Positions 21,033 to 49,799 of a stretch of DNA of 64,000 nucleotides are shown piece by piece. Both the position numbers and the translations under genes were made by a program. Every line of letters begins with the position of its first letter. Position 1 is the first letter of the stretch. The DNA comes from Candidatus Oxydemutatoraceae bacterium (lineage in GTDB: Bacteria > Pseudomonadota > Gammaproteobacteria > Poriferisulfidales > Oxydemutatoraceae). The stretch covers positions 544,001-608,000 of the forward strand of contig OZ244717.1 in NCBI GenBank assembly GCA_965218975.1, read 5' to 3'. The notes under the pieces are model-generated. The model saw only the letters and a program-made list of their open reading frames with translations, did not search any database and was not told where the DNA came from.

Positions 21033-21470
21033 ATGATTAAAACTAAGGAAAATACGATATATGACAAACCGCAATCTGCATAAGTTCAGAAACTTTTGGC
21101 ACTCCTGCCGACAGAAGGAGAAGCCTTGCAGGTCCAACATTATAGGCTATCGAATTCGGGGGTTGTATAGTGCCAGATACATATGGGACTCACGGCACGA
21201 CTCGAAAAGGTGACCGACATGCAATATCAGCACATCGGCCACCGCATCAAAGGTTTCTATATAAGCCAATTTTGCTTCAAAAATAGAGGCTATTATGAAC
21301 ACAACGGCTCAACAGAAACACGATGCCCGGTTATTTTGGGAGGGTTGTAACTCCCGAACGCATTCAAGGTCGGTCGCAGCACTTTGTACCGCTGGCGCCG
21401 ACGTTATCGCCGTACTGGACTCAGCGCCTTGCATGACCGCGGCAAAGCGCCGCGCAAGAGGCGTCGGCGG

Positions 21471-22185
21471 GTTGTCAGTAAAGTGCCTGTCGTCCATGAC
21501 GAGACTTGGTTCTGTCAATGAACGCCAGCCCCGACGTCTTTGTCGAGTCGTTCGCCGTTGAAAACCGATCGGTTTTCAGGGCACGTCTCACCCTGCGCCA
21601 GGCTTATCCGAATTTCGGCAGCAGTAAAGTCTTTGAGCTGATGAAACCGTTTTGTGTTTGTTGCAGTGTTATCAGCAAAGTGTCTGTCGTCCGTGACGAG
21701 ACTTGGTTCTGTCAATGAACGCCAGCCCCGACGTCCTTGTCGAGTCGTTCGCCGCTGAAAACCGATCGGTTTTCCGGGCGCGTTTCACCCTGCGCCAGGC
21801 TTATCAGAATTTCGGCAGCAGTAAAGTCTTTGAGCTGATGAAACCATTTTGTGTTTGCTGCCGGATTATCGGCAAAGTGCCTGTCGTCCATGACAAGACT
21901 TGGTTCTGTCAATGAACGCCAGCCCCGACGTCCTTGTCGGGTCGTTCGCCGCTGAAAACCGATCGGTTTTCCGGGCGCGTCTCACCCTGCGCCAGGCTTA
22001 TCAGAATTTCGGCAGCAGTAAAGTCTTTGAGCTGATGAAACCATTTTGTGTTTGTTGCCGTGTTATCAGTAAAGTGTCTGTCGTCCGTGACGAGACTTGG
22101 TTCTGTCAATGAGCACCAGCCCGACGTCCTTGTCGGGTCGTTCGCCGCTGAAAACCGATCGGTTTTCCGGGCGCGTTTCACCCTG
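21471..22185 (+). repeat. Tandem array with 197-bp period (element + short transposase segment), about 3.6 units
   Basis: Units end in TCACCCTG at 21595, 21792, 21989 and 22185. Confidence 0.96.
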
Positions 22186-22385
22186 ACGGACGGCGGGAGT
22201 GAGTTTCAAGGACAGTTTGCCCGGCTCATCCGGGAATCACCCGTGATTGAGCAGTGGCTGACCTATCCCAAGTGTCCAAAAATGAACGCGCACATCAAGC
22301 GCTTCAACCGCACCGTCCAAGAAGATTGTATCAATCATGCAGAAGACCTGCTATTCGCCGATACGGAAGCATTCAATGACCGGTT

Positions 22386-22644
22386 ATGAAACCGTTTTGT
22401 GTTTGTTGGTGGATGCTCAGCAAAGTGCCTGTCGTCCATGACGAGACTTGGTTCTGTTAATGAACGCCAGCCCCGACGTCCTTGTCGGGTCGTTCACCGC
22501 TGAAAACCGGTCGGTTTTCCGGGCGCGTCTCACCCTGCTCGTCCATGACGAGACTTGGTTCTGTCAATGAACGCCAGCCCCGACGTCCTTGTCGGGTCGT
22601 TCGCTGCTGAAAACCGATCGGTTTTCCGGGCGCGTCTCACCCTG
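22386..22644 (+). repeat. Two 5'-truncated copies of the ~175-bp element
   Basis: 22386-22537 and 22539-22644, both ending GTCTCACCCTG. Confidence 0.92.
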
Positions 22645-44798: not shown

Positions 44799-46178
44799 CC
44801 GATATGCAATATCAGCACATTGGCCACCGCATCAAAGGTTTCTATATGAGCCTGTTTAACCTCAAAGATAGAGGCTCATGAGCACTGCATAAGCTCAGAA
44901 ACATTTGGCACTCCTGCCGACAGGAGGAGAAGCCTTGCAGGTCCGACATATAGGTTACCGAATCCGGGGGTTTCCCCGGGTCGCTAAAATCGGGCATAGT
45001 TGGGATACTATGACTTACGATGCAAAACAACGACTCAAAATTCTCACCTTCCAGGAAAACCATGGCATGGCCGCTGCCTGCGATGCATTCAAGATCGGTT
45101 GCCGTACCTTGTATCGGTGGCGGCAGACCTTGAGGGAAGCCGGACACAACGCAGCGGCACTGGCGCCGCGTTCGACCCGCACCGCATCGCCGACGGCAGA
45201 CGCGGCGCCCGCCCGGTTTGATGCAAGCAATCCGTCGTCTGCGCGAGCAGTATCCGAACTTAGGTAAACAGCCGGTGCAGAAGTTGCTTGAGCTGTAGTG
45301 CGAGCGCCACGGCCTAGCCAACCCCAGCGTCTCGACTATCGGGCGCATCATCGCCGCAGCCCCGATAAGATGCGTCGTATCCCGCAGCACCTCAATGCCC
45401 GCGGCCGGCGCCGACCGTACCGCTGGGTCAACAGGTAAAGTCTTTGAGCTGATGAAACCGTTTTGTGTTTGTTGGTGGATTGTCGGCAAGGTGCCTGTCA
45501 TCCATGACGCGACTGGGTTCTGTCAACAAGCCCCAGCCCCGACATCCTTGTCGGGTCGTTCACCGCTGAAAACCAATTGGTTTTCCGAGCGCGTCTCACC
45601 CATGACGAGACTTGGTTCTGTCAATGAGCGCCAGCCCCGACGTCCTTGTCGGATCGTTCGCCGCTGAAAACCGATCGGTTTTCCGGGCGCGTCTCACCCA
45701 CCGCTACGTGTTCACCTTCATTGACCCGCGCTCGCGCGTTGCGTTTGCGTGGGCTTCCACTACCCGCAGCAGTCGGCGCAGCGCACACGCCCTGCGGCTG
45801 TTGTGTGAACTGGTGCCGAAACCGATCAACTATATTTTGTCCGACAACGGCTCGGAGTTTATGAAGGACTTCGAGACCGAGTTGAAACAGCGCCGGACCA
45901 CCCACTGGTGGACCTATCCGAAGTCACCAAAGATGAACGCGCACGTCGAGCGCTTCAACCGCAGCTTGCAGGAATCATTCACGGACTACCGCGCAGCTTC
46001 TTTGCGAGAAGCTCCTGTTCATTGATATGGCCCCTGCTTTAACCGGGAATTGGTGCAATGGCTGGTGTTTTACAACACCCAACGCCCCACCATTCACTGG
46101 GGTTGCAATCCCCGATACAATCGCTCCTGACTCACCACCCGGAGTGCCAAATGTTATGGACCTATACAGCATCGTACA
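44749..46178 (+). mobile_element. Composite nested IS481-family relic
   Basis: Outer left end TGTATAGTGCC at 44749. Inner element 44886-46168 with IRs sharing AACATTTGGCACTCC. Outer terminal GCATCGTACA at 46169-46178. Fragments LSDNGSEF and PKSPKMNAHVERFNRSLQE. Confidence 0.9.
45435..45699 (+). repeat. One full and one truncated copy of the ~175-bp element
   Basis: 45435-45601 and about 45601-45699; the first copy carries the palindrome variant GAAAACCAATTGGTTTTC. Confidence 0.92.
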
Positions 46179-46195
46179 CGCTGAATCAATGTGCT

Positions 46196-47062
46196 CTATA
46201 ATACCGTAGGCAGCTTCTCCAGAAAGATTCCAAGAAACACAATCAATCCGAGCCAAGCGTTATTAGTAAAGGCGCTAAGGCATGCAGTCGCTTCGCGCTC
46301 GCGGATTTCCCATAACTGATACAGCGCAAGAACGGCAGCGATAGCGATGCCGGCATAAAACCATAGGCCAAGTCCGAATAATTTTCCGGCAAATAAAAGT
46401 AGTGTCAATCCTGCGGTGTGAAACAGGCCGATAAATACTCTGTCATAGCGTCCGAATAAGATAGCGGTTGATTTAATTCCCGCTTCGAAATCATCGTCGC
46501 GATCAATTAACGCATAAATGGTGTCGTACGCAACCGTCCAACAAATATTCGCCGCATACAGTAGCCAGATGGCGGTAACTGGAAAGGTGTTGTTTTGTGC
46601 GACCCATGCCATTGGAATCGCCCAGCCGAATGTGACCCCAAGATATACTTGCGGTAGGTGATGCCAGCGTTTCATGAGCGGGTAGCTAATAATGAATGTA
46701 AGTGCGACAAGCGACATTAGAATCGTCGCAATATTCATTATTAACACCAATGTGAATGCAATCAACAATAAAATGGCGGCGAGCAGGCGCGCTTCAAAGA
46801 CGCTGACTGCACCGGTTGCAAGCGGTCGGTCGCGGGTGCGCTTCACTTGCGCATCAAATTCGCGATCGACATCATCGTTAATAACACAGCCGGCTGAACG
46901 CAATAGGATGACACCGAGCACAAAGACAACGAAAACGGTACGGCTCGGCTGTTCGTCGCCCGCCAGCCATAGCGACCATAATGTCGGGGCCAACAACAGA
47001 TAAATGCCGACCGGACGGTTCAATCGCATCAGTGCGATGTAGTTGCAAATTTTATCAAGCAT
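46196..47062 (-). CDS. ubiA: 4-hydroxybenzoate polyprenyltransferase
   Basis: RLNRPVG, AGCVINDDVDREFD..V.RT..RP, YDTIYA..D..DD. Confidence 0.96.
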   Translation of the reverse strand: MLDKICNYIALMRLNRPVGIYLLLAPTLWSLWLAGDEQPSRTVFVVFVLGVILLRSAGCVINDDVDREFDAQVKRTRDRPLATGAVSVFEARLLAAILLLIAFTLVLIMNIATILMSLVALTFIISYPLMKRWHHLPQVYLGVTFGWAIPMAWVAQNNTFPVTAIWLLYAANICWTVAYDTIYALIDRDDDFEAGIKSTAILFGRYDRVFIGLFHTAGLTLLLFAGKLFGLGLWFYAGIAIAAVLALYQLWEIREREATACLSAFTNNAWLGLIVFLGIFLEKLPTVL

Positions 47063-47454
47063 TATTTATGATGAGTATAATGTCATAGAGATTAATCTTA
47101 TGGCAATTCGCGATTATTGTGGTAGGCAGCCCCAAATTGCCCCTAGTGCTTTTGTCGACGAGATGGCGCTAGTGATCGGTGACGTCGTAATCGGCACCGA
47201 TAGTTCGGTTTGGCCGATGAGCGTTATCCGCGGCGATGTGCAGCCGATTCGAATTGGTGCACGCACCAACATTCAAGATGGTAGTGTTTTGCATGTTACC
47301 GGCAACGATAAGATTCCCTCCGATGTTTTCCCGCTGCAAATTGGTAATGCGGTTACGATCGGACACGGTGCGATATTGCACGCATGCACGATCGGAGACA
47401 TGAGTTTAATCGGTATCGGAGCAATTGTTTTGGACGGTGCAATCGTAAGTGGCG
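47022..47454. repeat. 433-bp direct repeat, left copy
   Basis: Appears identical to 49367-49799 and abuts the IS left IR. Confidence 0.95.
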
Positions 47455-49366: not shown

Positions 49367-49799
49367 AATCGCATCAGTGCGATGTAGTTGCAAATTTTAT
49401 CAAGCATTATTTATGATGAGTATAATGTCATAGAGATTAATCTTATGGCAATTCGCGATTATTGTGGTAGGCAGCCCCAAATTGCCCCTAGTGCTTTTGT
49501 CGACGAGATGGCGCTAGTGATCGGTGACGTCGTAATCGGCACCGATAGTTCGGTTTGGCCGATGAGCGTTATCCGCGGCGATGTGCAGCCGATTCGAATT
49601 GGTGCACGCACCAACATTCAAGATGGTAGTGTTTTGCATGTTACCGGCAACGATAAGATTCCCTCCGATGTTTTCCCGCTGCAAATTGGTAATGCGGTTA
49701 CGATCGGACACGGTGCGATATTGCACGCATGCACGATCGGAGACATGAGTTTAATCGGTATCGGAGCAATTGTTTTGGACGGTGCAATCGTAAGTGGCG
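49367..49799. repeat. 433-bp direct repeat, right copy
   Basis: Appears identical to 47022-47454 and abuts the IS right IR. Confidence 0.95.

Follow-up and report, generated by a model that had tools for sequence, protein, structure and literature searches.

A tRNA-linked-repeat-like three-hairpin unit with a minisatellite head, probably amplified with IS481 elements in a gammaproteobacterial genome

The tRNA-linked repeats (TLRs) of Escherichia coli have been known since 1978 and, by the account given in PMC8144298, are without a known function or origin. As described there, 22 units are distributed over ten loci, with one to five units per locus, and each unit contains 18–19 bp identical to the 3' terminus of whichever tRNA or rRNA gene lies upstream (PMC8144298). 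Examples include the 178-bp repeats of tyrT-tyrV, the rttR/RtT RNA (RF00391), and rrA, rrB, and rrF behind rRNA operons (PMC8144298). The subject of the present analysis is a repeat copy of 167 nt, located at positions 45435–45601 of a window of 64,000 nt (positions 544001–608000 of contig OZ244717.1) from a bacterium of the gammaproteobacterial family Oxydemutatoraceae, whose core unit resembles the TLRs in layout. The window belongs to a single contig of 2.081 Mb with 47.7% G+C, and the genome is 99.4% complete. A previous reading of this segment, made from the sequence only, had proposed a structured RNA or single-stranded DNA with a conserved scaffold and a variable loop, loosely comparable to guide or bridge RNAs. 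As argued below, the segment is probably a mosaic of repeat DNA, with a TLR-like three-hairpin core and a minisatellite head, which has been amplified by means of IS481 elements and short-homology misalignment, rather than the gene of an RNA with a programmable loop.

The mosaic lies within a decayed transposase gene of the IS481 family (Table 1), the translation of which (positions 45612–46022) matches the NCBIfam IS481 model with 77.9 bits and an E value of 9.3e-22, against a cut-off of 224. Both junctions of the inserted patch exhibit ~2 nt of microhomology, and the missing stretch of the host gene can be read in an uninterrupted copy at genome position 1542795 (+). Sister copies of the patch are found with the same junctions at 1204847, and with a different left junction at 1620735. 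Part of the patch is ordinary coding sequence: the IS481 copy that is uninterrupted at the main insertion site of the repeat (genome ~211207, minus strand) reads NLGSNKVFELMKPFCHRHQLLCPSVRTIAR, and therefore window positions 45435–45465, as well as the first 61 nt of the reference copy used for the census described below, are transposase coding DNA and not repeat. At this main site, the repeat takes the place of ~18 nt of the gene after ...CCGTTTTG. The uninterrupted copy is better evidence than the 84-aa N-terminal reading through the coding flank, for which the NCBIfam scan returned only a weak IS3 match (E 0.062). The junction type between the complete unit and the truncated one behind it follows 87 of the 306 canonical unit ends of the genome.

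Table 1. Features of the insert and other copies of the repeat family in the window
Feature	Position in window	Strand	Remarks
Decayed IS481-family element (second subfamily), host of the insert	44842..46190	+	Stops and frameshifts break the transposase frame; limits approximate, from sequence reading and repeats, not mapped element ends
265-nt patch from an element-bearing first-subfamily IS481 copy	45435..45699	+	Replaces an 86-nt stretch of the host's transposase gene
31 nt of IS481 (first subfamily) transposase coding DNA	45435..45465	+	Co-carried with the repeat
G/T-rich head	45466..45491	+	One unit of a 10–11-nt variable-number repeat; stem arms 45468–45474 and 45484–45490, "loop" 45475–45483
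Complete three-hairpin unit, tRNA-linked-repeat-like family	45492..45601 (110 nt)	+	Model R2 match, genome 589492–589601, 96.6 bits
Hairpin 0	45497–45500 with 45505–45508	+	Loop TCCA
Hairpin 1	45536–45543 with 45550–45557	+	Loop ATCCTT
Motif CGTTCA	45557–45562	+	
Hairpin 2	45568–45585	+	Palindrome GAAAACCAATTGGTTTTC
Fixed end CTCACCC	45595–45601	+	
Second unit, 5'-truncated	45602..45699	+	Hairpin 0 without its 5' arm; linked to the preceding unit at CACCC/ATGACG
Other family copies, in a second dead IS481	21427..22642	+	An array with a 197-nt period, plus two copies spaced 107 nt apart
Two family copies, in a third dead IS481	7940..8624	-	

The core unit is not restricted to this genome. A search by blastn with a 151-nt unit found it in none of 60 relatives, and exact-pattern scans for the palindrome and the 3' end yielded no locus in genome or metagenome contig collections, from which the records of this genome were possibly excluded. 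These results, together with the lack of covariation among the copies of the genome, would be expected if the repeat were a genome-private junk minisatellite with hairpins formed by chance. However, covariance models did find relatives, so that blastn has to be considered too insensitive for this family. The first model (R1) was built from the copies of this genome only, holds no tRNA information, and does not include hairpin 0 in its structure. Even so, it matched in four of 100 other genomes of the class, at eight loci, seven of which carry a tRNA gene. Alignments of these matches with the unit reveal a series of common blocks: a short hairpin around a TCC loop, a 7–8-bp hairpin, with an xTCCxT loop, whose stem differs in sequence yet is still complementary, the motif CGTTCGCC, a third hairpin that is unrelated in sequence, and the end CTCACCC. 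A second model (R2) was built from 16 units of five genomes, among them 45492–45601 and one more unit of the window. Applied to 150 other genomes, one per family of the class, it detects the unit in 32, several of them with more than 20 scored copies; in the own family of the bacterium, two of 18 other genomes contain it. The unit at 45492–45601 can be aligned over every motif of the family: hairpins 0 and 1 and their xTCCxT loops, CGTTCG, hairpin 2, and the terminal CTCACCC. Its R2 score is not independent, since the unit forms part of the training set, and the independent support is the finding of relatives by R1. The occurrence of the unit in 32 other families, with compensated stems and linkage to tRNA genes, refutes its private character and makes the junk minisatellite as a whole very improbable, although "junk in this genome" is still part of the best explanation.

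Comparison between genomes provides the evidence for folding. In a MAFFT alignment of the 16 units from five genomes, 91.7% of the cells are paired versus 73.9% in shuffles (25–45% in slid controls), double-change cells amount to 31 versus 10.6, and the score is 0.437 versus 0.115, a value reached by none of 500 shuffles. The middle pair of hairpin 0, for instance, is CG in nine of these units, AU in five, and UA in two. Another 34 units, drawn from 26 other genomes, were fitted to the model, a procedure that favours the structure; here, 95.5% of the cells are paired versus 76.1%, nine of 12 pairs show double changes, and 60 cells are doubly changed versus 12.5. Over these 31 genomes, compensatory changes are abundant in two hairpins: the CCCGAC/GTCGGG stem, which the sequence-only reading had listed, and one upstream of it (hairpin 0), which it had not. 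In the relatives, the counterpart of the palindrome is a third hairpin (hairpin 2) of quite different sequence, with at least six pairs in 43 of 43 segments and a z-score below −2 in 35 of the 43. Because of the compensatory changes across genomes, the family is seen to fold as a single strand, and the folded form is most likely RNA within pre-tRNA transcripts.

The structured scaffold is thus confirmed by the comparison between genomes, but the changes within this genome that had been cited in its support are not covariation. Among 62 distinct full copies, 13 cells are changed on both sides, 12 of which correspond to the centre pair of the palindrome, and two pairs carry a double change, where shuffles give 1.6 and 273 of 500 attain the observed level. 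In the proposed check with RNAalifold, the covariation term accounts for −1.31 of −23.68 kcal/mol, and the structures obtained on 265 units are weak and uninformative. The hairpin 1 pair that varies on both arms is CG in 215, CA in 26, TG in 22, and TA in none of the 265 distinct units. An outer stem, GA(A/G)CG/CGTTC, had also been proposed. Such a stem is not supported: two of its five pairs are Watson–Crick in only 52% and 43% of the units, and across the family CGTTCG is conserved but unpaired. The further claim that stems change in a G-U-compatible manner on the transposase-sense strand holds for the head stem (55 wobble cells versus six unpaired, from only three polymorphic sites), but not for the inner stem of hairpin 1, where sense-compatible GT/TG cells (57) stand against 40 antisense-compatible CA/AC cells. 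Folding energies of the 167 nt are modest and do not discriminate between strands, with z-scores of −1.53 for RNA of the plus strand, −2.63 for RNA of the minus strand, and −2.31 for DNA of the plus strand.

The double change that had been noticed in the palindrome exists as well, since GAAAACCAATTGGTTTTC is present in this copy, but it is a loop change and not a compensated pair. The pattern has ten matches in the window versus 0.02 expected, and the other nine have GATC or GGTC at the centre. Over 297 units, the centres are GATC (142), AATT (80), GTTC (19), GGTC (12), AGTC (8), AATC (4), and GATT (3), with five rarer centres in seven units in all and no call in 23. The changed positions sit in the 4-nt loop of the GAAAACC/GGTTTTC stem and enclose only 2 nt, so that pairing between them within a hairpin is impossible. 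No other column pair is as strongly coupled (r2 0.71), but values of 0.62, 0.52, and 0.45 are reached by other near-spaced marker columns, and the AATT centre, found on several unit backgrounds, is a subfamily marker. It may be added that GATC is under-represented in the whole genome (7662 observed versus 10224 expected), that GGATC is its most avoided 5-mer (observed/expected 0.72), and that the palindrome centres of the repeat vary solely in ways that destroy GATC.

The relatives are associated with tRNA genes, one of which lies within ~100 nt of the unit in 24 of the 34 loci examined. In 18 of these 24 linked loci, the tRNA is encoded on the opposite strand, with its 5' end mostly 12–18 nt from the hairpin-0 side of the unit (53 and 139 nt in two cases), and in the remaining six it is encoded on the same strand, with its 3' end 1–99 nt ahead of the unit, or 284 nt in one locus. 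After CTCAC(CC), 23 of 43 units continue with a copy of 13–19 nt (up to 39) of the adjacent tRNA gene, mostly exact to the end of the gene. In the 18 loci of opposite orientation, it is the 5' end of the tRNA that is copied, in a mirror form of the E. coli arrangement. The scored matches include loci with two or three R2 units side by side, and in this tandem arrangement they agree with the TLRs (one to five units per locus). In one locus (L040, from genome G066), the unit upstream of tRNA-Met holds a copy of the 5' end of tRNA-Phe instead of tRNA-Met, which suggests that units move between tRNA loci carrying an old tRNA fragment with them. A preprint on the mobilome that mentions rttR was considered as a source for a mechanism and set aside, since it gives none.

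This arrangement raises the possibility of a regulatory role through CsrA, for which ANGGA within a hairpin loop is regarded as a binding site (PMC8144298 in part). In the complementary strand, the loop of hairpin 0 and that of hairpin 1 would both present CA(N)GGAUG-type motifs, similar to such sites, and the units in tRNA leaders, perhaps along with the ~300 of this genome, could be transcribed and sequester the protein. The loops are kept as xTCCxT on the unit strand, i.e., A(N)GGA on the other, across genomes in which the stems covary. In 18 of the 24 linked loci, the unit runs antisense to the tRNA, mostly 12–18 nt upstream, and the leader of the pre-tRNA would therefore carry GGA loops, although in the six loci of opposite orientation a tRNA-sense transcript would carry UCC loops instead. 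The csrA gene is present in this genome and in 29 of the 32 unit-bearing genomes (the three exceptions being 69–88% complete), but it is not significantly commoner with the unit than without it (29/32 vs 93/118). Units are located within 1.5 kb of csrA, in the conserved csrA-tRNA-Ser-tRNA-Arg cluster, in six of 28 unit-bearing genomes examined, and 13 of the 14 csrA-adjacent units are antisense to csrA and the tRNAs, so that a csrA-sense transcript would have GGA loops. However, this linkage may merely mirror a preference for tRNA-Ser/tRNA-Arg, which follow csrA in 25 of 28 neighbourhoods, combined with the upstream mirror form. Three TLRs of E. coli rRNA operons bind CsrA in vitro, whereas the 19 TLRs of tRNA operons score below 0.01 in a CsrA-sRNA (small RNA) predictor, according to the results presented in PMC8144298. 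Wobble pairs favour the unit strand (GT 15 vs AC 6, a count biased by the strand of the model). With regard to the copies studied here, GGA loops, as in CsrA-sequestering RNAs of the CsrB/Rsm type, are found only on the strand opposite to the transposase sense; since units and dead transposase genes have the same sense here, such loops would require antisense transcription. Considering all these points, a CsrA-titrating RNA is an unlikely explanation for the repeat. At the csrA-adjacent loci (L083, L087, L090, L097, L108, and L109, the latter from the unpublished genome G192), the units lie between csrA and tRNA-Ser(GCU)/tRNA-Arg(ACG).

The head of the element, which contains the supposed variable loop, has a different nature. 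All seven loop 9-mers listed in the sequence-only reading occur in the window, and the 9-mer is indeed hypervariable, with a mean per-site diversity of 0.34 versus 0.085 elsewhere. It is the most variable 9-column window of the element, equalled in 65 of 20,000 column permutations. Nevertheless, it does not have the fixed length of ~9 nt that had been attributed to it, but varies in steps of 10–11 nt: over 138 heads, a fixed anchor and the unit are 25 nt apart in 66 copies, 35 nt in 11, and 46 nt in 34, with further length classes of ~56, 67, 78, and up to 103 nt. The "loop" is therefore the first unit of a 10–11-nt variable-number repeat (minisatellite). The head stem and its loop have been seen only in the derivative of this genome, and the relatives were not searched for the head. 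At positions 1501–1530 of one relative's locus (L039, from genome G065), between tRNA-Met and the unit, the sequence CCGTGTTGT is identical to one variant of the loop 9-mer, which may be a coincidence or a trace of the origin of the head.

These data bear directly on the proposal of a guide- or bridge-like RNA, in which a conserved scaffold would present a target-specifying loop. Besides its variability, the position of the 9-mer between the 7-bp arms of an imperfect inverted repeat speaks for such a loop, as does the fact that the arms vary at three positions and preserve wobble pairing on one strand at each of them, an outcome with a chance probability of ~1 in 8. On the other hand, the loop varies stepwise in length, and neither the 9-mers nor their complements show enrichment in the flanks. 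When every copy and head is masked and expectations are derived from permutation, exact matches amount to 0 versus 0.2 expected within 300 nt, 2 versus 0.5 within 500 nt, and 7 versus 4.0 within 1700 nt, while with one mismatch the values are 4 versus 5.4, 13 versus 15.4, and 94 versus 103.6; an apparent excess in the flanks (61 vs 10.3) was due to self-matches and unmasked neighbouring heads. The minimum-free-energy folds of the copy at 45435–45601 do not use the head stem, and no promoter-like or terminator-like site is found in the element. The suggested comparison with Rfam by cmscan gave no match at the gathering score in the window, the best one in 45300–45800 reaching 16.8 bits versus a gathering score of 60. 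Finally, no intact recombinase or transposase gene lies alongside, the only neighbour being the dead IS481 transposase. The guide or bridge reading is thus largely refuted, and hardly any credence is left to it.

Bridge RNAs of the IS110 family and omega RNAs of the IS200/IS605 family are structured non-coding parts of ~150–200 nt associated with a mobile element. The repeat resembles them in being a structured non-coding part beside a mobile element, but differs in that no IS110 or TnpB gene adjoins it, the genome shows no Y1 transposase, and neither a loop–target match nor an Rfam hit was obtained. Two other candidates were rejected. Domain V of a group II intron was considered for the 34-nt hairpin; there is no Rfam intron hit, and its loop and catalytic triad do not fit this domain. 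The other was a Type IIS restriction site, GAGAC/GTCTC, which lies 4–5 nt inward of the two unit boundaries; the genome shows no avoidance of it (observed/expected 0.95, rank 133 of 512), and the tandem junction is not an exact fit to the ends predicted.

How the unit has multiplied can be approached through a census of the genome by blastn with a 201-nt reference copy (window 21790–21990), counting pieces of at least 60 nt. The family comprises 318 pieces and 2.05% of the 2.08-Mb genome, and eight copies of the 167-nt repeat, including 45435–45601, lie in the window. Defining a locus as a cluster of pieces within 1.5 kb, there are 97 loci of 1–12 pieces each, and in 82 of them an IS481 end of like orientation lies no more than 2 kb away. 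The IS481 elements themselves are represented by 118 fragments, none of which reaches the family cut-off, and no open frame of 150 aa or more covers the whole transposase anywhere in the genome. The unit of ~98–110 nt occurs singly or in arrays with a period of 98, 107, or 197 nt. Its 3' end is sharp, as 309 of 318 pieces stop at reference positions 198–201, and the sequences downstream of the 306 canonical ends, ...GTCTCACC, fall into 36 classes. By contrast with this fixed end, the 5' starts are scattered over reference positions 1, 16, 32, 49, 70, 73, 81, 91, 99, 120, and 130. Other junctions of the family exhibit 2–7 nt of microhomology, and most copies in the genome share their junctions. 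In contigs assembled from four DNA runs, the repeat fragments the assemblies into short contigs.

Some copies depart from this general pattern. At genome positions 326186–326546, 1216557–1216702, and 1751365–1751529, the repeat lies in antisense orientation directly beside the N-terminal portion of a transposase gene of IS481, with another upstream flank of ~200 nt common to the three; they are exceptions to the same-sense rule. At 1035012–1035696, three 5'-truncated units of ~80 nt, separated by an A/T-rich spacer, follow one another at a spacing of 302 nt outside recognised IS481 remains.

Sharp ends and scattered starts could also be the hallmark of an actively mobile, non-autonomous element with a defined 3' end and variable 5' ends, copied in trans by an enzyme such as a reverse transcriptase (with 5'-truncated copies, like those of short interspersed elements, SINEs) or a HUH transposase of the IS200/IS605 or IS91 kind. 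In agreement with this, the fixed end has 36 downstream contexts, the upstream flank has been co-mobilised, the relatives are inserted exactly at the termini of tRNA genes and flanked by a 13–19-nt duplication, the distribution among families is patchy, and one genome holds head-to-head doublets with inverted ends that resemble miniature transposons. However, neither RVT_1 nor a Y1 transposase has a match in the genome, in a search that covered neither IS91-type (Y2) transposases nor tyrosine recombinases. RVT_1 is found in 11 of 32 unit-bearing genomes versus 40 of 118 others, and therefore shows no association with the unit and lends no support to retro-copying; it is absent from three high-copy genomes (G125, G170, and G077). 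The junctions display microhomology rather than a fixed target, to the point that at one site a 7-nt microhomology inside the unit supplants the canonical end, and most copies arose by descent, as indicated by their common junctions. Two sites with a known empty allele show 18 or 86 nt replaced, with neither target-site duplication nor inverted ends, at variance with a miniature inverted-repeat transposable element (MITE). A derivative of IS200/IS605 (PATE/omega RNA) is likewise not indicated, as the genome contains no PF01797 match, in a search that did not extend to TnpB, and the 5' ends are variable. Overall, active mobility seems improbable here. The doublets just mentioned belong to genome G164, where the unit of two loci (L079 and L080) forms head-to-head doublets of ~240 nt with inverted ends CAGGATT...AATCCTG, a palindromic form like that of a MITE, and where coordinates indicate at least five such doublets.

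The preferred explanation, i.e., passive amplification of a TLR-like unit with its minisatellite head, would involve the following steps. One unit with a G/T-rich head would have landed in an IS481 transposase gene and then multiplied to ~300 units in three ways. The first would be hitch-hiking on IS481 transposition before all the copies died, which fits the location of nearly all loci in IS481 remains and the identical junctions of many copies. The second would be tandem duplication, directly visible in the periodic arrays. The third would be the copying of patches between IS copies at 2–7 nt of microhomology, always ending at CTCACC(C); this is observed for several junctions, and we infer that it represents the general process. 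The copy at 45435–45601 would be part of such a patch, and its "variable loop" the unstable first unit of the minisatellite. The sharp CTCACC end would then be the normal junction end of the family, joined here to IS481 sequence instead of a tRNA end, and the ~300 copies in dead IS481 elements are presumably passengers with no function of their own.

Several observations weigh against this explanation. The homology of the family rests on covariance-model matches and shared motifs, not on a tree. Model R2 has no unit match in the tyrT TLR region of E. coli, only a CTCACCC snippet, and the Rfam family RtT (RF00391) is found at its gathering score neither in the window nor in the units of the 24 loci of relatives, nor, with E up to 10, in 45300–45800; hence "TLR" refers here to a shared layout and not to demonstrated common descent. 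The copies of this genome lie in IS481 remains and not in tRNA operons, as TLRs do, and the 306 canonical ends precede IS481 or other sequence, never a tRNA end. The 9-mer is hypervariable even among 24 copies with one common junction, and "minisatellite instability" describes this variability without proving its cause. Fifteen of the 97 loci have no IS481 end within 2 kb, by a crude test, and the explanation does not account for the preference for the CTCACC end as a breakpoint. Nine tRNA or tmRNA genes in this genome have a copy of the repeat within 500 nt, none of them in the arrangement of the family. A sub-threshold RtT hit was obtained in a locus of one relative (L043:298–432, genome G066; 33.5 bits vs a gathering score of 45), not over the units but downstream of a tRNA-Ser whose upstream side bears units of the family.

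A bolder idea, which we regard as doubtful, is that TLR-type units in general could be self-propagating folded elements, whose conserved CTCACC end would be recombinogenic by nature and would ordinarily capture 13–19 terminal nt of a tRNA gene, at one end of the gene or the other. In this genome, released from tRNA genes, that end would have brought about a copy-and-paste spread across IS481 genes, with no reverse transcriptase or transposase of the unit's own. The conserved GGA/TCC loops might serve as a handle for a host factor (CsrA or another), which would be exploited or titrated.

Two further sets of repeats were observed in the window. A 300-nt repeat (family D2) is present at 6136–7200 in four tandem copies at a spacing of 255 nt, three of them 100% identical. 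Another pair of direct repeats of 300 nt (family D4; 47022–47321 and 49367–49666), 100% identical and 2345 nt apart, may bound a recent duplication or a mobile unit.

The results have consequences beyond this locus. A unit with the layout of the TLRs belongs to a structured family with compensated stems and invariant loops that is present in approximately one fifth of the sampled families and absent from Rfam 15, and a mirror form upstream of tRNA genes, which copies the 5' end of the tRNA, is now on record. The genome constitutes a natural experiment, where a unit has left the tRNA genes and increased ~300-fold, with dozens of junctions that can be dated, all at the same end, so that the spread of such units becomes approachable by strain comparison. 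For annotation purposes, 2% of the genome is explained, and a tempting reading as a guide RNA can be removed as unsupported.

Among other described repeats, BOX and RUP of pneumococci are likewise modular, with a head and a variable number of tandem middle units, rich in stem-loops, and probably parasitic, and RUP has been proposed to insert preferentially into or near insertion sequence (IS) elements, which is reminiscent of the present repeat (PMC3049150). However, as described there, they carry inverted repeats at their termini, are flanked by target-site duplications, and look like the ends of a resident IS (PMC3049150), whereas the repeat studied here has neither of the former at the two sites with a known empty site and bears no sequence relation to them. 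Hairpin-bearing variable-number tandem repeats (VNTRs) are also found in endosymbionts, for instance at the VNTR loci of Wolbachia; the parallels are units of ~100 nt that expand and contract in tandem and a minisatellite head of variable copy number, but the description concerns a few intergenic loci (PMC3287509), compared to 97 loci in IS481 remains and structured relatives across the class. The Betaproteobacterial repeat element (BRE) shares a unit of ~90 nt, tandem arrays, and a distribution across families, and is transcribed in Bordetella (PMC3110155). It was rejected as a relative, since its sequence differs by inspection and the form described has no TCC loop, CGTTCG, or CTCACCC; moreover, that description reports no tRNA linkage (PMC3110155).

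The TLRs of E. coli offer the closest parallel, with clear differences besides the lack of a sequence match. The mirror form upstream of the tRNA, which accounts for three quarters of the linked loci, falls outside the definition as published (PMC8144298), and the copies of this genome, ~300 units versus 22, lie in IS481 genes and carry no copy of a tRNA end. In common with the TLRs, the units of the relatives adjoin a tRNA gene, are arranged singly or several in tandem, and end in an exact terminal copy of 13–19 nt; like them, they are non-coding and rich in hairpins, with GGA or TCC motifs in the hairpin loops.

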